Virus genome (UHGV): UHGV-0040380
Source: a virus
DNA length: 27,512 bases
Direction: 5' to 3' (one strand)
Each line of letters opens with the position of its first letter. Position 1 is the first letter of the stretch. Shown here piece after piece: positions 4,487 to 27,370 of this stretch. Position numbers and translations under genes: made by a program. Under the pieces are notes generated by a model that made no database searches, was not told the origin of the DNA, and saw only the letters and a program-made list of their open reading frames with translations.

Positions 4487-4590
4487 GTTAATTCTCCAGA
4501 TAGTCGCAGCACCCGTTGCGCCGCATATCCGGTTATTCTATTACCCGAAAAACCACATATGGATAGACAACCCATAAATACGAACAGATA

Positions 4591-4605
4591 TTACCTTTCA
4601 GGTGA
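4591..4605. promoter_or_regulatory. Operator-like 15-bp dyad TTACCTTTCAGGTGA (copy 1 of 3)
   Basis: Inverted repeat TTACC-N5-GGTAA with one mismatch in the right arm; lies in the divergent intergenic region between the tailspike and the SOS-box gene. Related copies at 4971-4985 and 21882-21896. Confidence 0.4.
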
Positions 4606-4642
4606 TTCGCAAAACGTGCTGGATAGCAAACAAATTATTTGC

Positions 4643-4942: not shown

Positions 4943-4985
4943 TTGAAATTACCAAATGGAGTGCTTATATTTACCTTTGCGGTAA
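4943..4985 (+). promoter_or_regulatory. Sigma70-like promoter (TTGAAA-17-TATATT) abutting operator-like dyad TTACCTTTGCGGTAA (copy 2)
   Basis: -35 TTGAAA (4943-4948), 17-bp spacer, -10 TATATT (4966-4971); the dyad (4971-4985) starts at the last base of the -10 hexamer. Confidence 0.4.
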
Positions 4986-5126
4986 ATTTACATCGCACTC
5001 CTCTTGTGCCATAGTAATCGGGCACTGGCAAAATCCAGTGCTGGGATTGGTCTCCCGGATTACTACAGAGTTAGTGCTACACTCATTGACGCCACATTGA
5101 GGTGGCTTATAGATGGAAATTTCACA

Positions 5127-5288: not shown

Positions 5289-5311
5289 AAACAAGGCCGC
5301 GAAAGCGGCCT
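5286..5311 (-). terminator. Rho-independent terminator after the membrane-protein gene
   Basis: Stem AGGCCGC / GCGGCCT (5294-5300, 5305-5311) with GAAA loop; on the minus strand it is followed by TTGTTTTT (plus-strand A-tract 5286-5292). Confidence 0.6.
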
Positions 5312-5323
5312 GTGACATGTCAC
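5312..5323. repeat. 12-bp perfect palindrome GTGACATGTCAC (copy 1 of 3)
   Basis: Identical 12-mers at 5312-5323, 22855-22866 and 25120-25131; here it overlaps the TGA stop of the 5320-5616 gene and abuts the terminator hairpin. Confidence 0.6.
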
Positions 5324-5616
5324 GTTCCTTTTCTGAATGATAGCCGTTCGAAAAATGATGACATTCCACCGCAGACAATAGCAAAGATGATCCCACCAAA
5401 GAAGAGAAGGCCAGCCTGCCACCACTCCCACCGCCATACATCCACAGCACCAACCATACCAACAATCGCTCCAACAAATGGAATATAGCTCACGATGAAA
5501 GCAATGGGGGCTGCAATTATCCAGTGCAATCCCCACCATGATTCAAGCCCAGCCATAATTGCTGCCAACTGAAAAAGACCAACGACGATATAAACAATGA
5601 ATCCTATAGCTTGCAT
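5320..5616 (-). CDS. Small integral membrane protein (98 aa, three predicted TM helices), standalone gene with its own terminator
   Basis: AGGTGA SD 5 nt before the ATG at 5616; highly hydrophobic with W/G-rich loops; followed by a terminator; lies between the core-protein genes and the tailspike, a position not occupied in T7-type modules. Confidence 0.55.
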   Translation of the reverse strand: MQAIGFIVYIVVGLFQLAAIMAGLESWWGLHWIIAAPIAFIVSYIPFVGAIVGMVGAVDVWRWEWWQAGLLFFGGIIFAIVCGGMSSFFERLSFRKGT

Positions 5617-12604: not shown

Positions 12605-13149
12605 TATAATCCTCCGGGTAATCTGGTTCCTGCTGCTGCCCCGATTGGCGCAGGAGTGCTTTGAGTAAACGGACTCCACGTCCCACCAAACATCTGGTAC
12701 GCACCGTATGCCTTCAGAGGCGCAGTGAGCAATGTTGTTGCTGCTCCCACATTCCCCTGTTTACGGGCTGAACTGGCTTCTGCTTTATAGTTGGCAGCCT
12801 GAACCTGATAACCGTAAGCCTCGCGTTGCGCGTTATTCACCGTCGTCAGCGAATCAAGAGCGCCAAACTGGGCAGTGTCGCCAAATATATCCAGCGCGTT
12901 ACCTGTAGATAAATCAGCGCCGGTAGCCCCCATTGTCGCCGCCTGTGTACCAAGCCGCTGTCGGGTCTCTCTGCGCCGTTGCTCAGCTTCAGCGTTACCT
13001 CTGTTTATTGCATCATTTGCCTGAGCTGTGGCTATATCTGCGTTCGCTTCTGCAACCTTCGAGGCATACTTTCCCTGTTGGTACTGGGTGTATGCCTGAA
13101 TGCCACTCATGGCGAGCATTGCGCCACCAGCAATAACCGGATCGCACAT
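12604..13149 (-). CDS. Internal virion protein (T7 gp14-like position), Ala/Gln-rich
   Basis: 181 aa; low-complexity A/Q/G-rich sequence; size and position match the small core protein that follows the tubular proteins in T7-type modules. Confidence 0.45.
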   Translation of the reverse strand: MCDPVIAGGAMLAMSGIQAYTQYQQGKYASKVAEANADIATAQANDAINRGNAEAEQRRRETRQRLGTQAATMGATGADLSTGNALDIFGDTAQFGALDSLTTVNNAQREAYGYQVQAANYKAEASSARKQGNVGAATTLLTAPLKAYGAYQMFGGTWSPFTQSTPAPIGAAAGTRLPGGL

Positions 13150-13616: not shown

Positions 13617-16084
13617 AATCCCCCAACAGTAAGGCGAGGAATAACGGCAAGAACAGACAGCGGCAACGGGTCAAGCTGACGGATTTTTACACGCCCGTTT
13701 TTGCCCCAGTTACTGTCCAGTTTCACTTCTACTTTTCCGGTAGCATCATCAACAGGATCATCGTAGAACTCGAATTCACGCTGTGGATATTCGTACCATT
13801 TACCGCCGGGCGTAGTCGCCCAGATGCCGCGACTGGCATTCACAACCAGAGTAACGGACGGGATCACCTGTTTTTTGTCCAGCAGCGTTTCCTGTCCGTT
13901 AATGTTGATATCCAGTGTTTCGAATTCAGCAGTTATTGGCAGGCCGATGTGCACTACAGCCCCCGGAGATTCCAGCGTGACGGTACCTCCGGAAACCACT
14001 TTCTGTGGTTCCACGTTCGCATCAGAGAGAATGTTTACGGTCTGGCCTTCAAGATGAGACAGGCCTCCAAATGTCCGGCGCGCCATCTGCCAGTTCGTGG
14101 TGGCCACATTCCTGAGGGATGATGGGACGTTCCTGTTAGGACGAACCACTACAGCGGTATTGCTGGTTACAGAAATAATGTCGCAACGTAATTCTTTTGA
14201 CACTTCATCGCCAGTATCAGGATCAGTTCCGGTATAAGGGAATTGTAGTTGCGCACCGACATCACTACTGGTGAAGTACGCACCACCAGAAATACTGATT
14301 GTATATTCCACGCGGTAATCCCATTCACCAGAACCACCAGTGATGGTCATCGTTCTGTCAGACGTATTTCTTCCATCATAGCTAAGGCCAGAATCAACAA
14401 AGAAAGCATCTTCATCGCTGGTAAATAAACGGCTGGACAGTCGCTCTATGTATCTCACTGTTTGCCCGTTAACGGTTCGGTTAACGACGAAATACACCGC
14501 ATCTTCATTGCCTTCGCTGATACTGCATGTGCTTTCATATTTCCCGGTACTGGATTGTGGTGCCCATGCAAAAACCTGCTGATCACGCAAATAGGTCATC
14601 ACCAGTAATTTACCGTCATCACGAATGCAGAAGGCGCTGGAGTAAGGGACAATAGAGAAGCACCAGTCAACAATGCTGTGCTTCTGAAAAAGATGATTGG
14701 CAAGGATGGTCAGGTCGTTCCCCTGATAGCCGTCAACATCGAATGAGTAGGCCAGATCACGGACAACACTGCCTTTCTCCTGGACGAACAGAGCAATATT
14801 CGCCACGGCAATTGGTGGGACATTGCTCGAGCCATTTGATCCCTGAGAGCTGAATGCAAATGATGATGGGGTTAACACTTTGTTCTGGTCGCCGGTGATG
14901 ACGTACTCACCTCCGGAAGTCAGTGCCACCAGCGAACCGACATCAATCAGGTGGCGGATCTCATTAACCTGACGCCCGGCATAGGTGTAGATAATTCTGT
15001 CGTCATCCTGCGTAGGATTGCTTTTGCCAAAATCCTTATAATCCCCAGTACGGCTGGCCCAGATAGTCTGAGGGAACGCTGTCGATGCGGCGAAGTAAAG
15101 ACGTTGTTGATAATAAACAACAGTGCCAGGATAACCGTTAACACTATTCCAGGCATATTTAGCCCATTTATAGCTGGCATTATCCTCGCCAACTACCTGC
15201 GAAGGGATATAGGAAATCACCTCAGCAGTTGCAGTAGTTCCATTTGCAGCAGAGATACGGGCAATGCCAAAACCACTGTGCAGATACTCCCACTCAATGC
15301 CAGTATCATCATCACCGGATCCGCCCCAGCCATCCCATGATGTGCCTTCTGTATGCGAAGGGCGCAAAGTACCTGTTTTGCCTGCTGTAACGGCGCGATA
15401 GTAGTTACTGTCTGCACGGCGAATATCGCCAATCGACGTACTCTTACTGGTTTCCCATACCGGCACAGAATCCACTGCAGGCTGTTCCAGATAGAACAAT
15501 TTGCCTACCTGCTCCGCGCCAAAAATAGAGGCGCTTGCCGTTAACGTAATTGTCCCGGTGCTGGCGCTGGCATAAACCGTCACTGACTCGTCAATATTGA
15601 TATCTTCAAATGGCCCGTTCTTCGTTACCACATCAACCAGTTGCCAGTTGTCATGCGCATAGCGGCGCAACTCTTTCGGCGGGTATGCCGGATGAACCAG
15701 CGTAAGCACGTCTGCGCTTTGCGTGAATTTAATTCGGAACAGATCGGCTTCAGTATATGGCGTGGCAATTTCATAAATAACATTGCTGCTGTTCAGCACC
15801 AACGCACCATCTTTGATAACGCGCATGTACTGGTGTCCGAACTCCAGAGCATAAGTCTGAACCGTCGAGAACTGGAACGGGATCAGGCGGCATTTCCGAT
15901 TTGGGTATTTGGCGGCACCGACAAAACGCGTACCAGGTCGATTCTCAACGCCGCCATACTGCCGCACGATAAAGTTATCGCACTTGCGCAATGCCACCTG
16001 GTACTTCGCCATGTCGATACGACCGTACAACGACGGTCCAATCTCACCACCGGCAAAGCTGGGCTGGATCCAACTGATAGCCAT
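13613..16084 (-). CDS. Tail tubular protein B (T7 gp12-like nozzle)
   Basis: 823 aa (T7 gp12 is about 794 aa); directly follows the gp11-like gene; N-terminal pattern (SW.QP.FAGGEIGP......R......) loosely resembles the gp12 N-terminus from memory. Confidence 0.5.
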   Translation of the reverse strand: MAISWIQPSFAGGEIGPSLYGRIDMAKYQVALRKCDNFIVRQYGGVENRPGTRFVGAAKYPNRKCRLIPFQFSTVQTYALEFGHQYMRVIKDGALVLNSSNVIYEIATPYTEADLFRIKFTQSADVLTLVHPAYPPKELRRYAHDNWQLVDVVTKNGPFEDINIDESVTVYASASTGTITLTASASIFGAEQVGKLFYLEQPAVDSVPVWETSKSTSIGDIRRADSNYYRAVTAGKTGTLRPSHTEGTSWDGWGGSGDDDTGIEWEYLHSGFGIARISAANGTTATAEVISYIPSQVVGEDNASYKWAKYAWNSVNGYPGTVVYYQQRLYFAASTAFPQTIWASRTGDYKDFGKSNPTQDDDRIIYTYAGRQVNEIRHLIDVGSLVALTSGGEYVITGDQNKVLTPSSFAFSSQGSNGSSNVPPIAVANIALFVQEKGSVVRDLAYSFDVDGYQGNDLTILANHLFQKHSIVDWCFSIVPYSSAFCIRDDGKLLVMTYLRDQQVFAWAPQSSTGKYESTCSISEGNEDAVYFVVNRTVNGQTVRYIERLSSRLFTSDEDAFFVDSGLSYDGRNTSDRTMTITGGSGEWDYRVEYTISISGGAYFTSSDVGAQLQFPYTGTDPDTGDEVSKELRCDIISVTSNTAVVVRPNRNVPSSLRNVATTNWQMARRTFGGLSHLEGQTVNILSDANVEPQKVVSGGTVTLESPGAVVHIGLPITAEFETLDININGQETLLDKKQVIPSVTLVVNASRGIWATTPGGKWYEYPQREFEFYDDPVDDATGKVEVKLDSNWGKNGRVKIRQLDPLPLSVLAVIPRLTVGGL

Positions 16085-19596: not shown

Positions 19597-21570
19597 TCAC
19601 TCCTGTTCACTGGCCTCTTTGGCCATCTTCAAATACTGTTCAGGGCAATGAGCCATAACGCGCTGAAACAGTTCCAGCGCCAGATTGCGTTGCCCCTCAT
19701 TAAATGCCATTGCCATAGCGTCCATCGGTGAGATAGCGGAAAACACACGGCCTTTCTCCAGCACCGACCAGACAACGCGACGCCCCTGTTCACTGCTCAT
19801 GACAAAGCGAATGTCATCAATTTCACGCTTCGCCATGTCACGTTGCTTACGGGCGTTTTCTTCTTTCAGTTGATCGTCTTCGTAATCTGTCATTGTGATT
19901 GCCCCCCCCTGACCACTAACTGCATTCGCCATAGCTGACAAAACACTCGGATCCGAAGTTTTAGCTTCGCTTAGCGTCTTGGCACCCTGTGCCGCCGCCA
20001 TCCCCATCGCCATCATTTGTTGCTGCTGTTGCTGCTGTGCCCGTTGCTGGCGAGCCTGCTCAACCTGTTCCTGCGGAACAATAACGGTTGGAGACACTCC
20101 GGACATATCAGCGAATGCATCGATCGCCTGATCAACGTTGAGTTTGTCGAGAGCTTCTGGTTTCGCTTGCGCAAGTTGACCAATGAAGTTAACCGTGGAC
20201 GCCAGACTGGACAGGCCGATAGACTTCTGCGCCTGAGCCATGACGGAAATGTATTCGACCTTCAGGGGCATGCCTTCCATCGCGTCAGGCGGTGGCGGCA
20301 GCATGTTTTTACGCACCATCATCGAGAAAGCGCGGTCAATGAGAGGATTAAGACATTCGTCGTTCAGACGCTCCAGAACCGGCCCCAACATCAGAAGTTT
20401 TTCTTCTTTCATTTCGATCACCGCTTCAACAGGCATCGAGCGGGTATTGATGTTCTGCAACATCATGAACAGATCGACAAAGTAGGCGCTGTTAATGATT
20501 TGACGAGTGTCCTGAATGTCTGCCACCAAATCTGCTGTACTGGGGTTAACCAGATAAGCAGGCCTGAAGCCATCCTGACCAGTAATCTGATCGATATACG
20601 TGATGTCGCCAGGAAGAAGGGAGGCTCGCTGATTCTTGAGGGAAGTCGGAGCAACCATCGGCGGATTGGTGGCTTTATCAATCAACTGCGACTTGCGCTT
20701 CTGGAGAAGCTGCAATGCCTTAACAGGTCCAAGAGCCAGCATACCCGGGCATGATGATCCATAAACATCTTCGCCGTTAACTTCCCAGCGCGGAGCCATA
20801 ATTGGAAACTCATCGAATCCGGACTCACGCAACAACTTGTCGTTATCGCCACCAACCTCGTAATAAACCGATTTGAATGGCTTGTTCTTGCTATCCAGCT
20901 TCGATGTATCGCGGTCAATGTTCGGGTAAACCGAGTGCATCACTTCAATCCACTTCTCGTAGGTGCCGCTTTCCCACATGCTTTTTACGTATTCGCTGAC
21001 GTTATTTAGCCCGAACTCCTGAACAAGCTGACGAACAGTCATAGAGAACTTGCGAAAACAGGTGTCCACACTGCCACGAGGTGAGTTAGCCAGGTAGTAA
21101 CTGCCTATCGGGAATGGCATTGTGCGAATAATGTCCTCGTCATCCTCCAGCACCGCCATTGCACCAGTGCTGTATGTTCCGAGGCTTCCGTATAACTGCG
21201 GCAGCGACTGATAGAGATTCGACTTATTGAACATATCGTTCATGCGGTTCTGCACCGCCTCAAGCCACAACTTAACAGGGCCATAATCCATCATTTCAGG
21301 ATCTGGCGTAGCCAGACGAAACCACGGACGCGCGGGGCTTGTGATGCCTGACATCATGCCGCTGGCGAGAGTGCGCGCCGCCATAGTCCCGGTCGAATCA
21401 ATAATGCGTGTATTCCGTCGATCGTTACGATTGACCTCAGAAGTCAGAAAGCGGGAACCACGCGGGTTGATGTAATCACTCAACTCGCGCCAGTGCGGCT
21501 CGAACGACTGACGCTCGCTTTCAAGTTGTGCGAACTGTTTGTTCAATCGCTCTTTAGTTGTTTCCGCCAT
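19597..21570 (-). CDS. Portal (head-to-tail connector) protein, T7 gp8-like, with a C-terminal extension
   Basis: 657 aa; contains a Q-rich ...QQQQQQQMMAMGMAAAQG segment resembling the T7 gp8 C-terminal region (from memory), followed by about 100 extra residues; precedes scaffold and capsid. Confidence 0.8.
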   Translation of the reverse strand: MAETTKERLNKQFAQLESERQSFEPHWRELSDYINPRGSRFLTSEVNRNDRRNTRIIDSTGTMAARTLASGMMSGITSPARPWFRLATPDPEMMDYGPVKLWLEAVQNRMNDMFNKSNLYQSLPQLYGSLGTYSTGAMAVLEDDEDIIRTMPFPIGSYYLANSPRGSVDTCFRKFSMTVRQLVQEFGLNNVSEYVKSMWESGTYEKWIEVMHSVYPNIDRDTSKLDSKNKPFKSVYYEVGGDNDKLLRESGFDEFPIMAPRWEVNGEDVYGSSCPGMLALGPVKALQLLQKRKSQLIDKATNPPMVAPTSLKNQRASLLPGDITYIDQITGQDGFRPAYLVNPSTADLVADIQDTRQIINSAYFVDLFMMLQNINTRSMPVEAVIEMKEEKLLMLGPVLERLNDECLNPLIDRAFSMMVRKNMLPPPPDAMEGMPLKVEYISVMAQAQKSIGLSSLASTVNFIGQLAQAKPEALDKLNVDQAIDAFADMSGVSPTVIVPQEQVEQARQQRAQQQQQQQMMAMGMAAAQGAKTLSEAKTSDPSVLSAMANAVSGQGGAITMTDYEDDQLKEENARKQRDMAKREIDDIRFVMSSEQGRRVVWSVLEKGRVFSAISPMDAMAMAFNEGQRNLALELFQRVMAHCPEQYLKMAKEASEQE

Positions 21571-21791: not shown

Positions 21792-21881
21792 ATCAATGAC
21801 TCCGTACGCAATTAAATTATTACCAATTTAACCACATATGATTTATTTATCGTAGACAGTTGACATTTAACGCACGAATTA

Positions 21882-21896
21882 TTACCTTTCAGGTAA
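21882..21896. promoter_or_regulatory. Operator-like 15-bp dyad TTACCTTTCAGGTAA (copy 3, perfect)
   Basis: Perfect inverted repeat TTACCT-ttc-AGGTAA; a consensus -35 hexamer TTGACA lies 16 bp upstream (21860-21865) on the plus strand, the strand that carries the tRNA. Confidence 0.4.
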
Positions 21897-22218
21897 CCAA
21901 AGAGTTCATTCCGGTTACTAACCTGACTGGCTTGTCGTTAAATTGAACTGGTGGAGTGAGCTTTTATTTTGAGCAGTACGGCGTATGGCACATGCGCCGA
22001 TAGCGGTCTGGATACGTTTAAGGGGCACCCTCCCTTGCTCGGGCAAACGAACCAGGTAGCCGGAATGTGCAAGTCGAGCGGTTTTATTCCGCGCACGGGG
22101 ATTCACCATCCCGGCGATTCGGTGTGACGCCTCGGAAGAGACGAGGGTACAACGATGAGAGCATTTATGGAGCCGCGACAAAGTGTGGTGCCTTAACAGG
22201 CTAAGTGCTCTCAGCGTT

Positions 22219-22295
22219 GTGGCATTAGCTCAGTCGGACAGAGCAACCGCCTTCTAAGCGGTTGGTCGCAGGTTCGAATCCTGCATGCCACGCCA
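22219..22295 (+). tRNA. tRNA-Arg (anticodon UCU, reads AGA/AGG), phage-encoded
   Basis: Cloverleaf folded by hand: acceptor GTGGCAT / ATGCCAC, D-stem GCTC / GAGC, anticodon stem ACCGC / GCGGT with loop CTTCTAA, T-arm GCAGG-TTCGAAT-CCTGC, discriminator G plus encoded CCA. Resembles E. coli argU but has a different acceptor stem. Confidence 0.9.
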
Positions 22296-22493: not shown

Positions 22494-22850
22494 ATGAACG
22501 ACCAGCAAATCGAAAAAGAAATCGTTGAGAAAGGCAAAACCGCTCCGCGAGTTACGCCTCAATATATCGAAAGCATCATTCTTGAAGAGCATTTCTTTAC
22601 TGCTTATGACGGCATTCGTGCTGCCAATATGGGCGTTGGCGATTCATGGACAGCGCATAAATCTACAGACCTCCTGACTTTCTGCGTACTGGTGCTGAAG
22701 AATGGCTTCACCGTCACCGGAGAAAGCGCCTGTGCAAGCCCGGAAAACTTTGATGCAGAAATTGGTCGGAAGATTGCCCGGCAGAATGCTGTAAACAAAA
22801 TCTGGATGCTCGAAGGTTACTTGCTGAAGCAGAAGCTAAGCGAGCAATAA
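22494..22850 (+). CDS. Hypothetical protein (118 aa), moron in opposite orientation to the late genes
   Basis: ATG with AAGGTGAG SD; no signal peptide or TM segment; not recognised by me; bracketed by intrinsic terminators on both sides. Confidence 0.6.
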   Translation: MNDQQIEKEIVEKGKTAPRVTPQYIESIILEEHFFTAYDGIRAANMGVGDSWTAHKSTDLLTFCVLVLKNGFTVTGESACASPENFDAEIGRKIARQNAVNKIWMLEGYLLKQKLSEQ

Positions 22851-22854
22851 CACC

Positions 22855-22866
22855 GTGACATGTCAC
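22855..22866. repeat. 12-bp perfect palindrome GTGACATGTCAC (copy 2 of 3)
   Basis: Lies 5 nt after the stop of the 22494-22850 gene and 4 nt before the terminator stem. Confidence 0.6.
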
Positions 22867-22870
22867 AAAC

Positions 22871-22897
22871 AGCCAGCCTATGAGCTGGCTTTGTTTT
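22871..22897. terminator. Convergent (bidirectional) terminator between the 118-aa gene (+) and terL (-)
   Basis: Stem AGCCAGC / GCTGGCT (22871-22877, 22884-22890) with 6-nt loop, followed by TTGTTTT on the plus strand and GTTTGTG on the minus strand. Confidence 0.6.
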
Positions 22898-22940
22898 ATC
22901 CTCACCAGAGGATATCAACGACATTATCCCCACCAGCGGA

Positions 22941-24416
22941 TTAAGCATAGGGATCGTAATCTGTGATGGCCTTGCCTTGCTGGTTCTGCTGACCGGGAAT
23001 TCGCAGACGCTTCGACACAGGGAACGCAAACGTCAGCAGTAGCGCATCGCCTTTACCAGGAGAACGCCCAAGTCGCTCTTTGATATCTTCCTTCGGTTCG
23101 ATAACGATTTTACCGTCCACTCGAACTTTGTACTCTGCTGCCGACAGGTCGTCCGCTGTTTCCTGGTCATCAAGCATGCCGCCCAGCCTCAGCCATGTCT
23201 TGCATGAGTTGAACATCTCCCCACGCTTGTTGAGCATCTGCGGGTCAGTAGACGCGCCACCGAACTGAACAAGTTGCCATGTACGACCCCAGCCGTCACC
23301 GATTGACTTCAGACCAGTTCCGTAACCGAAGTCGATGAACACTGCGTCAGCCTGGTACTGGTCTTCAAAGTCAGCGATACGCTTCGCCATAATCAGATCG
23401 TCAGTGGTCTTGTTGCCGGTCCACAGCACCTTACTATGCAGCCCCTGCCGCAGGTATATCACAGCGTCATCAACACCGGAGTATGCCGGGTCAACGCCGA
23501 TTATCACCGGAGCATGTGCAACCTGCGCAGCGGTTACCACCCGTTTCATTGCCTCGTCAGTAAGGCCGGTAGGGATAAACTGCAATTCAGATGCATCCGG
23601 GAATATGCCGCGCACACGGATTTTAACGAAGTCGCTGTCTTCCCCGTAGTCATCAACCCATTTCTGCAACTGCTGTTTGTTAGTGCCTTCCACCGTCCGG
23701 CTGTCAATCTGCGCAGTTTTCCAGCGGTGTTTATATTTGCGGAAACATTCGCGAAAACGCCCGGTGTTACGTGTAGGGTTTCCGAACGCCACCCAGATAA
23801 TCTCAGTGTCTTCGTCCGTAAGCGCACCCTCGGCAACTTCCCACACCAGATCCGCAATGTTCGACGCTTCATCAAACACCACGATGATGCGTTTGCGCTC
23901 GTTGTGTAGTCCGGCGAATGCCTCGGTGTTGTGCTCAGACCAGGGGATTGCGTCAGCTCGCCACCGCTTGTCGTGCCCAGGATCATTGCTGTACATCGCG
24001 GTAGCGGTACAGGTAAACCAGTCTTTCGTGATAGCAAGGTTTGACCACTTGATAATTTCCGGCCAGGTCTTCGTTCGTAGCTGGTTGTCGGTGTTGGCGG
24101 TCACCACGACCTTACAATCCTCGCAAGTGGACATGCCCCAGTTGATCAGCATTGAGATGAATGCGGATTTACCAATACCGTGACCAGAAGCACGTGCCAG
24201 CATAAGCGGCTGATAACGCGTCTCTGGATTCTGCAGGTGATCACGTATCTCTCGGAACGCATCGGCCTGCCACTGACGTGGGCCGGTGGCATGTGCCAGT
24301 TCAGTCCCCTCTTCCCCCCACGGGAACGCATAGAGGGCATAGCCAAGCGGATCGTGAGTGAACCCTGCAATATCCTCGATTAACTGCTCTTCAGGAGATA
24401 ACGCTGTATCTGTCAC
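22941..24416 (-). CDS. terL: Terminase large subunit
   Basis: 491 aa; Walker A-like GHGIGKS, Walker B-like IIVVFDEAS, C-terminal nuclease-like region (IIGVDPAYSG, DAVFIDFGYG); start overlaps the terS stop. Confidence 0.9.
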   Translation of the reverse strand: MTDTALSPEEQLIEDIAGFTHDPLGYALYAFPWGEEGTELAHATGPRQWQADAFREIRDHLQNPETRYQPLMLARASGHGIGKSAFISMLINWGMSTCEDCKVVVTANTDNQLRTKTWPEIIKWSNLAITKDWFTCTATAMYSNDPGHDKRWRADAIPWSEHNTEAFAGLHNERKRIIVVFDEASNIADLVWEVAEGALTDEDTEIIWVAFGNPTRNTGRFRECFRKYKHRWKTAQIDSRTVEGTNKQQLQKWVDDYGEDSDFVKIRVRGIFPDASELQFIPTGLTDEAMKRVVTAAQVAHAPVIIGVDPAYSGVDDAVIYLRQGLHSKVLWTGNKTTDDLIMAKRIADFEDQYQADAVFIDFGYGTGLKSIGDGWGRTWQLVQFGGASTDPQMLNKRGEMFNSCKTWLRLGGMLDDQETADDLSAAEYKVRVDGKIVIEPKEDIKERLGRSPGKGDALLLTFAFPVSKRLRIPGQQNQQGKAITDYDPYA

Positions 24417-25009
24417 TGATTACTATCCTGACGTTCTTTGAGTCGCTTCCTGGCTGCTGCTATGCGATCAGCAATTGTCACATTCACATTAACATCCAGA
24501 CGTTCTTTGAACGCGTTGACATCAACATGCTTACCAATCAGCTCAAGGTTCTTCACCTTGTCAGGCCATTTAATTTTTTTGAGGATTGTCTCTATCGAAT
24601 CCTCGTTCATGTTCATGATGGTCGATGACAGATCAAAGCCACTAAGCGTAGTGCGCCAGATTTTCGGCCACTCGCGGATTGGCTTAAGGCTCCCATCGTC
24701 GTTGAGGATGTCGATCACGTCCATCTGGTCGATCTCCACCAGGCGCATGAGAACGTAATCAGCACTGACGCGCATTCGTTTGTTGCGCTCCTCCATCAAC
24801 TCGGCAATCCGTTTTTGAATGCGTTCATCGCGCATCATGACACTGGCTTTAACTGCCGCTGTATTTGGGGAGAATCCTGCGTTAATCGCTGCCTGAGTCT
24901 GGTTTTCAGGCGTTTTGATGTATGACTGGCAATAAGCCTCCTGCATTGCTGTGAGCGGCTTAAATTGCGTTGATTTGCGTTTATAGGTTTTAGGTTCAGC
25001 AGGCATCAT
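24413..25009 (-). CDS. terS: Terminase small subunit
   Basis: About 198 aa from the ATG at 25009 (GGTGG SD); terminase small-subunit-type N-terminal HTH region (QTQAAINAGFSPNTAAVKAS). The ORF-track TTG start at 25087 would run through a terminator hairpin and direct repeats. Confidence 0.8.
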   Translation of the reverse strand: MMPAEPKTYKRKSTQFKPLTAMQEAYCQSYIKTPENQTQAAINAGFSPNTAAVKASVMMRDERIQKRIAELMEERNKRMRVSADYVLMRLVEIDQMDVIDILNDDGSLKPIREWPKIWRTTLSGFDLSSTIMNMNEDSIETILKKIKWPDKVKNLELIGKHVDVNAFKERLDVNVNVTIADRIAAARKRLKERQDSNQ

Positions 25010-25017
25010 AACCACCG

Positions 25018-25046
25018 TGGTAATAGTTACCGTTGTGGTAATAGTA
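25018..25046. repeat. Tandem direct repeats GTGGTAATAGT x2 (7-bp spacer) in the terS leader
   Basis: Identical 11-mers at 25018-25028 and 25036-25046, between the upstream terminator and the terS RBS. Confidence 0.5.
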
Positions 25047-25051
25047 CCATG

Positions 25052-25078
25052 CAAAATAAAGCCGCCATAGTTGGCGGC
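25052..25078 (-). terminator. Rho-independent terminator upstream of terS (separates accessory genes from the packaging/late genes)
   Basis: Stem GCCGCCA / TGGCGGC (25061-25067, 25072-25078) with 4-nt loop; minus-strand T-tract TTTATTTTG follows. Confidence 0.6.
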
Positions 25079-25119
25079 AGTATTCAAAGTCCATCAAATT
25101 CATCATGCATAATCTACTC

Positions 25120-25131
25120 GTGACATGTCAC
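25120..25131. repeat. 12-bp perfect palindrome GTGACATGTCAC (copy 3 of 3)
   Basis: Overlaps the TGA stop of the 25128-25469 gene, as copy 1 does for the 5320-5616 gene. Confidence 0.6.
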
Positions 25132-25469
25132 ACTATTAATTTCGTTTCATGCCAGCCTTTGGTCACCCAGCATTGCGAGTCACCACTACACGGGCATGAA
25201 TTCACAGGAACTCTCTCGCCGCACTTACCGCAACGTTTTCTGCTGATCGATTTTATACGCCCGCGCACGCGTGCATCATCCTGGCGGATCAGTAACGCTA
25301 TATACTCACCAAATTCGTAAGGCGCACGCCCGGGGCGACGCGTGGCGCAGTTCCGCTCCAGCATTTCAATTTCCTGAGCATCAAGCACAATCTCCAGCTT
25401 ACGTACACCGGATGCAGCTTGTCTGGCTCTCTGAGCGGCTTTGCGCTCTGCTGCTGATTTAGCCATCAA
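25128..25469 (-). CDS. Small basic protein with a C-terminal Cys-rich (zinc-finger-like) segment; possible regulator
   Basis: 113 aa; Arg/Lys-rich N-terminus and a CGKCG...CPCSGDSQC cluster; last gene before the terminator that precedes terS. Function not established from sequence. Confidence 0.45.
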   Translation of the reverse strand: MMAKSAAERKAAQRARQAASGVRKLEIVLDAQEIEMLERNCATRRPGRAPYEFGEYIALLIRQDDARVRGRIKSISRKRCGKCGERVPVNSCPCSGDSQCWVTKGWHETKLIV

Positions 25470-26821: not shown

Positions 26822-27370
26822 TCACTCTCCTTTGATGCGAATGCCAGCGGCGCGGATTGCAGCGATGACTTCAGAAACTTTGTATGCCATTACCGTTTGG
26901 TAATCCTCGTGAAAATCTGTTCGATGAAGCATGCTGCTACGTTCCGGGAGCGATATTTCCCGTTCATCCAGTTCTGCTATGCGCTTCTCTGCGGCTTCCA
27001 GCGCTCTTCCCTGCTCGCCATTCTTCTTCTCCAGCGATTCAATTCGGTCAGCCTGCTGGTTGATATGGTTGTCCTGTGCGGACAATACTTTGTCTTTGGC
27101 TTCCCGTTCATCCAGTAGTGCCAGCACGGTAGCTGGATTGGCTGCGGCGATGAATTCAGCATTGGCCTGCTGTTCCATTTGGAAATCTTCATCGAAACCG
27201 CTTTCAGGATGCGCTCCTTCAATTCTGCAAATGGGAAGATATCCAACAACTTCACGATGAATTAGCGCATCACCAGCATCAAATATCTCCTCTCCATATT
27301 CTAGCGACCACACACCACTCGTTGCTTTCTCTGCCTTTTCACGCAGCGCCTGATAGTCAATCTTGTTCAT
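26822..27370 (-). CDS. Ead/Ea22-like prophage protein
   Basis: 182 aa; N-terminus MNKIDYQALREKAEKATSGVWSLEY resembles the conserved start of lambdoid Ea22-like proteins (from memory); coiled-coil C-terminal half. Confidence 0.45.
   Translation of the reverse strand: MNKIDYQALREKAEKATSGVWSLEYGEEIFDAGDALIHREVVGYLPICRIEGAHPESGFDEDFQMEQQANAEFIAAANPATVLALLDEREAKDKVLSAQDNHINQQADRIESLEKKNGEQGRALEAAEKRIAELDEREISLPERSSMLHRTDFHEDYQTVMAYKVSEVIAAIRAAGIRIKGE

Follow-up and report, generated by a model that had tools for sequence, protein, structure and literature searches.

The palindrome in its prophage

The stretch of DNA analysed here (27,512 nucleotides of virus genome UHGV-0040380, hereafter the window) represents an epsilon15/phiV10-like (Uetakevirus) prophage whose late genes are encoded on the minus strand; it is 96–98% identical to E. 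coli phages and prophages. The window contains three exact copies of the 12-bp palindrome GTGACATGTCAC (sites 1 to 3, Table 1), as the sequence-only reading had reported. The 12-mer has no match in 100 dinucleotide-preserving shuffles of the window, and a search of the window at up to two mismatches reveals no additional copies. A partial copy noted earlier near 27368 amounts only to CATGTCAC, an 8-mer corresponding to one half-site at chance level, and it is not counted because about one such match is expected by chance. A 14-mer had been described as common to two of the copies; the 14-mer, cGTGACATGTCACa, is real, but all three copies have it, at 22854–22867 and 25119–25132 in one orientation and at 5311–5324 as the reverse complement, in the opposite orientation. 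The fuller motif, comprising the 12-mer and its flanking bases, is YGTGAC-NN-GTCACR.

Table 1: Genes, palindromic sites and intrinsic terminators of the window.
Feature	Coordinates	Strand	Remarks
Family gene (phiV10 gp55 / epsilon15 gp49 / N15 gp46 family, phrog_536)	25128–25466	-	112 aa
Site 1 palindrome	25120–25131	.	On TGA stop of family gene, early-right operon end
Intrinsic terminator, early-right operon end	25061–25078	-	41 nt downstream of site 1, before terS
terS	24413–25009	-	ATG at 25009 gives 198 aa, length equal to epsilon15 terS
terL	22941–24416	-	
Intrinsic terminator	22871–22890	+	4 nt past site 2; hairpin shared with terL end on the other strand
Site 2 palindrome	22855–22866	.	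4 nt past accessory gene stop, convergent with terL end
Accessory gene (Phage_gp49_66 family, PF13876)	22494–22850	+	3' untranslated region holds site 2
Portal gene	19597–21570	-	
Last gene of late structural operon	5320–5616	-	98 aa, phrog_3075; stop codon within site 3
Site 3 palindrome	5312–5323	.	On TGA stop of last late gene
Intrinsic terminator, late operon	5294–5311	-	Abuts site 3

All three palindromes are located at the 3' ends of transcription units, 0–41 nt upstream of an intrinsic terminator, which bears out the earlier placement of the copies at gene ends. Two of them overlap TGA stop codons, as had also been noticed; in ORFs 5320–5616(-) and 25128–25469(-) the stop occupies palindrome positions 2–4, in identical register. 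The terminator hairpins previously seen against two copies are real, but all three copies have a hairpin plus T-run. The palindrome itself, having a stem of 4–5 bp, 50% G+C within the 12-mer and no T-run, does not qualify as an intrinsic terminator, and the true terminators are separate elements adjacent to it.

The terminator at 25078–25061(-) precedes repressor-operator-like sequences and then terS. The dyad ATTACC-N5-GGTAAT is annotated as the repressor operator in the epsilon15 record, and six matches with up to two mismatches are found in the window against 0.7 expected. Five of these (25008–25024, 25026–25042, 21881–21897, 4590–4606 and 4970–4986) are placed at the terS start, upstream of the gene preceding the portal gene and in the region upstream of the tailspike, while the sixth, at 12606, is intragenic and may be due to chance. 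Because of these positions the late region looks like three units under direct repressor control, and the palindromes would therefore mark the ends of successive units, each next unit starting from a repressor operator. The Rep repressor operator was itself considered as the identity of the palindrome and rejected, its dyad being a different sequence at other positions.

Some further features of the region were recorded. The mechanically defined terS ORF (24413–25087(-)) and the phiV10 annotation both begin at a TTG within the upstream terminator hairpin; the ATG at 25009, giving 198 aa as in epsilon15, is the likelier start. Between site 1 and its terminator lies a remnant ORF of eight codons, MHDEFDGL* (25084–25110(-)), which is the C-terminus of a ~70-aa ORF that is intact here in relatives L033, L040, L043, L073 and L083, indicating a deletion in the window. 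A tRNA-Arg gene (anticodon TCT) at 22219–22295(+) lies between the portal module and the accessory gene and runs opposite to the late genes; it is annotated in several relatives too. The closest relative (98% identity) is present twice in one assembly of E. coli NADC1036, in the chromosome (NZ_CP076264.1, 2789482–2814563) and as L091, a 38.7-kb circular record named after guaA (NZ_CP076267.1), suggesting that the circular record is excised phage DNA assembled as a plasmid.

Conservation of the sites and their association with a gene family

The Salmonella phages epsilon15 and SPN1S, which are ~80% identical to the window in conserved genes, carry the perfect 12-mer at the same three positions with diverged flanks, and phiV10 carries two perfect copies and one with a single mismatch that spans the record junction. 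The phiV10 record thus starts within a palindrome; a genome end or pac/cos site was nevertheless rejected, as the start just follows the gp55 stop codon, and a packaging signal would not be expected three times in a genome. Relatives in IMG/VR were sampled through the family gene for sites 1 and 2 (80 sequences) and through the last late gene for site 3 (80 sequences). At site 1, 75 of 80 relatives have the perfect sequence and 4 a copy with one mismatch; at site 3 the palindrome is intact in 77 of 80, differs at one position in 2 and is deleted in 1. Site 2 is perfect in 53 of 80, has one mismatch in 11 and is absent from 15, so it is dispensable in some close relatives. The 15 relatives without it carry a different cassette with breakpoints at 22939 and 22482, not at the palindrome. 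In epsilon15, phiV10 and SPN1S site 2 is perfect, and the accessory protein of the window is ~71% identical to that of phiV10.

Downstream of site 3 the 80 IMG/VR relatives have at least five different unrelated sequences, and the core identity of this site is 0.99 compared with 0.87 and 0.60 for its flanks. When unique haplotypes of the IMG/VR relatives are considered, core identities are 0.99–1.00 and flank identities 0.60–0.87. Judged from these alignments, the palindromic motif is under purifying selection. The sequence-only reading had suggested looking for the motif at equivalent junctions, where it is indeed kept in epsilon15, phiV10, SPN1S and most of the 160 IMG/VR relatives.

A wider scan using one genome per species yielded 46 loci from 46 Enterobacterales species, with homologues of 35–81% protein identity. 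In the 860.6 kb surrounding these homologues there are 64 GTGAC-N2-GTCAC sites against ~0.8 expected, distributed over 44 of the 46 loci. The spacing is strict: the same arms at spacers of 0, 1 and 3–7 occur 0–1 times each in the same 860.6 kb, with no N3 site. Among all inverted 5-mer pairs at spacers 0–4 the GTGAC pair at spacer 2 ranks first; it is present in 44 loci, compared with 14 for CCCAC at spacer 4, the runner-up among independent pairs, and the 34 loci with TGACA at spacer 0 reflect the interior of this same motif. The motif lies on the TGA stop of the homologue in a single register in 25 of the 46 loci and no more than 30 nt from it in 30, with protein identities as low as 35%. 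All ten arm bases are strictly conserved with no compensatory arm changes among the 64 sites, and 120 of 128 half-sites have a pyrimidine next to the arm.

Members of the family occur in phages of Enterobacterales, Vibrio and Aeromonas, and six of the seven unrelated phage lineages that carry it have the site. In N15, where gene 46 is 35% identical, GTGACTGGTCAC or its complement occurs three times, once on the gene 46 stop in the same register. The lambda-like phage Chlobot has one site, GTGACATGTCAC, 7 nt past the homologue; Pantoea phage AH07 has two sites, of which one, GTGACCTGTCAC, is on the stop of the homologue; a single site is present in a P2-like Yersinia phage; and of the three in Vibrio phage K233, one precedes terS by 30 nt. 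With the Vibrio homologue as a lone query, two loci were recovered.

Two individual loci show variations of the arrangement. In Aeromonas phage 13AhydR10PP (L089, around 2959–2971) the homologue, of ~32% identity, ends A TGA CAT GGC AC, a degenerate copy of the palindrome (10 of 12 positions) that covers the stop in the same register, and the 22.9 kb of this locus contains no perfect palindrome. In Xenorhabdus ehlersii (L132, around 13627–13822) a second, partial family gene ending GWHALKL* has its own GTGACATGTCAC 4 nt past the stop.

Family-free control DNA amounting to 197 kb contains no motif site; it consists of the phages lambda and P22, 100 kb of E. coli chromosome with a lambdoid prophage in it, and three loci that carry an accessory-gene homologue. 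A concern raised earlier, that the 12-mer might be frequent in the host, is answered by its absence from the 100 kb of E. coli chromosome and from lambda and P22. As far as these sequence comparisons extend, the motif travels with the family across unrelated phage types and is missing from DNA without it. Because the gene and the adjacent site are physically linked, co-inheritance would suffice to account for the primary site, but neither the secondary sites nor the covariation described below would follow from it. In the literature searched, the 12-mer appears only in unrelated primers, and papers on Uetakevirus and N15 regulation mention neither the family gene nor the site. The family, the motif, its placement on the gene's own stop and its operon-end positions are undescribed, while a small dimeric binder with a palindromic site is of a familiar kind.

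The 112-aa protein and its correspondence with the motif

The family gene is the last early-right gene, and its TGA stop is overlapped by site 1. Its 112-aa product matches phrog_536 ('transcriptional regulator'). No match was obtained in Pfam or NCBIfam, even with permissive thresholds, in the PDB by sequence or profile, or with Foldseek from a first, low-confidence model. The family comprises 921 clusters, and the named members among those listed are all 'hypothetical' or 'phage protein'. Residues that are invariant or almost so are C40, R43, R44, P49, Y50, E54, L59, I60, C79, C82, G95, C99 and T102. An AlphaFold2 model built from a 33-sequence alignment (pLDDT 74) has helices at residues 5–19, 30–43, 52–75 and 100–111 and leaves residues 21–29, the segment proposed as the DNA-reading strand, unstructured. 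The predicted fold weakly resembles the ribbon-helix-helix (RHH) fold, and RHH proteins are the best, though weak, structural matches. Beyond this core the family has an N-terminal basic helix and a C-terminal cysteine cluster (C79, C82 and C91/C99, together with the invariant C40); the Cys-rich C-terminal tail is probably zinc-binding. No conserved partner is encoded downstream, where terS, Xis/AlpA-like genes and various small ORFs are found instead, and no recombinase or nuclease gene is consistently adjacent.

The central dinucleotide of the motif varies together with the proposed strand, in what amounts to about four subfamily or lineage events confounded by phylogeny: strands of the form RK[LIV]E[LI]xL or VTKIELxL accompany the centre AT, the Yersinia strand INEIRARL accompanies GC (5 of 5 loci), the N15-type strand TTRRDWVL accompanies TG/CA (6 of 6 sites), and the Vibrio strand IQELRLKV accompanies AC/GC. 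An exception is the Pantoea locus L110, with an AT-type strand and a CT centre. Invariant arms in turn accompany invariant basic residues. Covariation of the centre with the strand, combined with invariant arms, is what direct recognition by a symmetric dimer predicts, and the pyrimidines in 120 of 128 flanks fit the symmetry of DNA rather than extension of an RNA stem.

Taken from sequence, YGTGAC-NN-GTCACR is probably the cognate DNA-binding site of the predicted 25128–25466(-) protein. The 112-aa protein would consist of an RHH-like core and a Cys-rich tail and would bind as a dimer centred on the dyad, its two-stranded sheet reading the central base pairs and its invariant basic residues reading the GTGAC arms. 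Among the roles offered by the sequence-only reading, that of a site for a dimeric DNA-binding protein is consequently well supported, with this predicted product as the candidate.

Small dimeric proteins with the strand-helix-helix core that is weakly predicted here include Arc, Mnt, CopG, omega, ParG, TacA and the ParD antitoxins. RHH repressors likewise read short symmetric or repeated DNA sites through a two-stranded sheet. They bind operators at their own promoters, however, whereas the primary site of the family is at the 3' end of the gene and the other sites are 3' untranslated or intragenic.

Proposed role, alternatives and meaning

One site lies on the stop codon of the family gene itself, and the other two are at the 3' ends of two more transcription units, shortly before intrinsic terminators. 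It is conceivable, at a level of confidence that remains tentative, that the bound protein serves as a roadblock or insulator at operon ends and limits its own synthesis through its own stop codon. The operon ends so reinforced would be those between the early-right operon, the terS-terL unit and the structural-gene unit, with repressor-operator-like sequences at the start of each late unit. Self-limitation is proposed because the primary site covers the gene's own stop codon; binding there would limit synthesis of the protein and read-through into the next gene. An architectural role similar to that of matS is an alternative to the roadblock. More broadly, an RHH/zinc protein that acts at 3' gene ends as a roadblock or as a matS-like organiser of the phage chromosome may, together with the palindrome, constitute a novel and widespread module of temperate phages, a reading that is offered with reservation.

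Several observations bear on the position of the sites. In the species loci the order site-then-terminator is found 16 times and the reverse twice, and only 25% of sites have a nearby terminator, compared with 1.7% of random positions. In N15 and Chlobot only 10–15 nt separate the site from the next start codon, leaving no room for a promoter, and the sites are mostly outside promoters. Secondary sites are heterogeneous, being located inside a YdaT/CII-like gene, N15 repA and a phrog_2479 gene, and upstream of the Vibrio terS, and no single function is evident from their positions.

Two groups of secondary sites recur in detail. A perfect 12-mer ~70 nt before the end of the YdaT/CII-like gene (PF06254, phrog_163), upstream of replication genes, is found in Proteus, Xenorhabdus, Providencia and Morganella prophages (L112, L119, L122, L124–L126, L130 and L131; e.g., position 6412 of L130), where the surrounding codons have diverged and the 12-mer is kept. 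In N15-type phages (sites at 33237 in N15 itself, L084; 11522/15732 in L090; 4645 in L139) GTGACTGGTCAC lies in the 5' third of repA, and a second site lies between gene 33 and a terminator.

The site at the coding end of the gene for its probable binding protein has a parallel in LacI, which at lac operator O3, at the 3' end of lacI, forms an elongation roadblock that results in self-limitation. A DNA-binding protein so positioned can stall RNA polymerase, truncate its own mRNA and reduce read-through. The analogy is one of mechanism only, as the proteins are unrelated, and the roadblock in the present case would be a matter of inference. In the window and in epsilon15 the arrangement also resembles lambda Q/qut/tR', with the last early gene, a DNA site, a terminator and late genes in succession, and the GTGACA half of the site resembles a -35 hexamer. 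The family protein has no Q-family match, however; N15, Chlobot and AH07 carry a separate Q-like gene, and there the family gene is not beside late genes. Relatives insert ~200 bp between site and terminator, and sites 2 and 3 leave no room for a promoter. The promoter-like match is found at site 1 only, and the Q-type arrangement is not kept in relatives or in other lineages. A site for a late-promoter activator was rejected likewise, since the distance to terS varies by ~200 bp among relatives.

The position of the sites between stop codon and terminator might instead reflect a function in RNA, with the palindrome forming a hairpin GUGA-CAUG-UCAC that affects termination efficiency, the stability of the 3' end or coupling to translation of the next gene, whether or not the family protein binds the RNA. 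All three sites of the window are transcribed in this position, the predicted folds contain a 4–5 bp hairpin beside each terminator hairpin, the site precedes the terminator in the 16-to-2 excess given above, and in N15, Chlobot and some relatives the next gene's Shine-Dalgarno sequence comes directly after the site. However, a stem of only 4 bp is marginal, and the invariant C5 and G8 are unable to pair across a 2-nt loop. The Y/R flanks fit a two-fold symmetry of DNA, while a transcript in one of the two orientations, such as that of site 3, would have a C-A mismatch, and the sites are found in either orientation with respect to transcription, some of them antisense to genes. Ten strict arm bases exceed what a hairpin needs, because compensatory changes, of which the 64 sites show none, would be tolerated in an RNA stem. 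A function as an RNA hairpin is thus considered unlikely. The variable neighbourhoods of the sites raise a different question, namely whether the palindrome is a recombinase or nuclease target, or a homology patch, that moves accessory genes including the family gene, the secondary copies being empty or used targets. The palindromes do border variable accessory-gene regions, and the family gene and its site are found in very different phage backbones. Different small ORFs directly follow site 1 in L033, L040, L043, L073 and L083, at least five sequence variants directly follow site 3, and in the circular NADC1036 record (L091) a 67-aa ORF lies between the family-gene stop and the palindrome, with a degenerate copy, GTGATATGCCTA, at the stop. 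Insertions by site 1 and divergence 3' of site 3 are nonetheless to be expected where the site is on a stop codon at an operon end. The breaks of the site-2 cassette are not at the palindrome, homologues of the accessory gene in family-free phages have no palindrome within 1 kb, and the 197 kb of control DNA including lambda and P22 contain no empty target sites. Intragenic sites are conserved in orthologous genes across genera, Pectobacterium loci have two sites 27 bp apart in an operator-like rather than scar-like arrangement, the family gene lacks the consistently adjacent recombinase or nuclease gene, and the covariation of protein and centre is left unexplained. Mobilisation through the palindrome is accordingly regarded as quite improbable. 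The earlier proposal of a junction that mediates modular exchange is unsupported as a cause, given the breakpoints, the motif-free accessory homologues and the intragenic sites, and a nuclease or recombinase target is improbable, with nothing in its support. That the palindrome is part of the accessory-gene cassette was rejected, homologues elsewhere lacking the motif.

A host protein exploited by the phage, either MatP or a regulator of the CRP/FNR type, could also bind the palindrome. Enterobacterales, Vibrio and Aeromonas, in whose phages the family occurs, are groups that have MatP. The matS consensus, GTGACRNYGTCAC, is a 13-bp palindrome with a 3-bp centre (PMC6907758). The GTGAC/GTCAC arms of the two sequences are identical, but the centre is 2 bp in all three window copies and strictly so in the loci, with 64 N2 sites and none with the matS N3 spacing in 860 kb. 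Moreover, there is no need for a host-factor site to accompany one phage gene family, or to be lacking in lambda, P22 and 100 kb of host DNA, and the centre tracks the phage protein rather than the host. The two systems are alike in having a dimer with an RHH element, predicted in the present case, and a few dispersed high-information sites per replicon, some of them intragenic. MatP, however, has a four-helix bundle and a coiled coil, which the family protein lacks; the latter has a Cys-rich tail, is encoded by the phage and has a site on its own stop. Homology to MatP was rejected on the basis of an hhalign comparison of the family profile with E. coli MatP, a soft test in which the probability was 0.1% and no similarity was detectable. 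Recognition by a host factor consequently appears very improbable, and the family protein is retained as the probable ligand of the site.

With this assignment an unnamed family of ~900 clusters, which occur in many Salmonella, E. coli, Klebsiella, Citrobacter, Proteus, Yersinia and Vibrio prophages, gains a testable hypothesis of function together with an exact target of 12–14 bp. The placement on the gene's own stop and at operon ends differs from that of classical operators and suggests a role in controlling transcription elongation or read-through, or in organising DNA, in temperate phages. In epsilon15-like phages the motif helps annotation by showing where the early-right operon, the terminase unit and the structural operon end, and the combination of matS arms with a different, strict spacing provides a natural experiment in half-site spacing. 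If the tentatively proposed module is real, it would represent a mode of phage gene control or DNA organisation without a described example, spanning Uetakevirus, N15-like, lambdoid and P2-like phages of Enterobacterales, Vibrio and Aeromonas.
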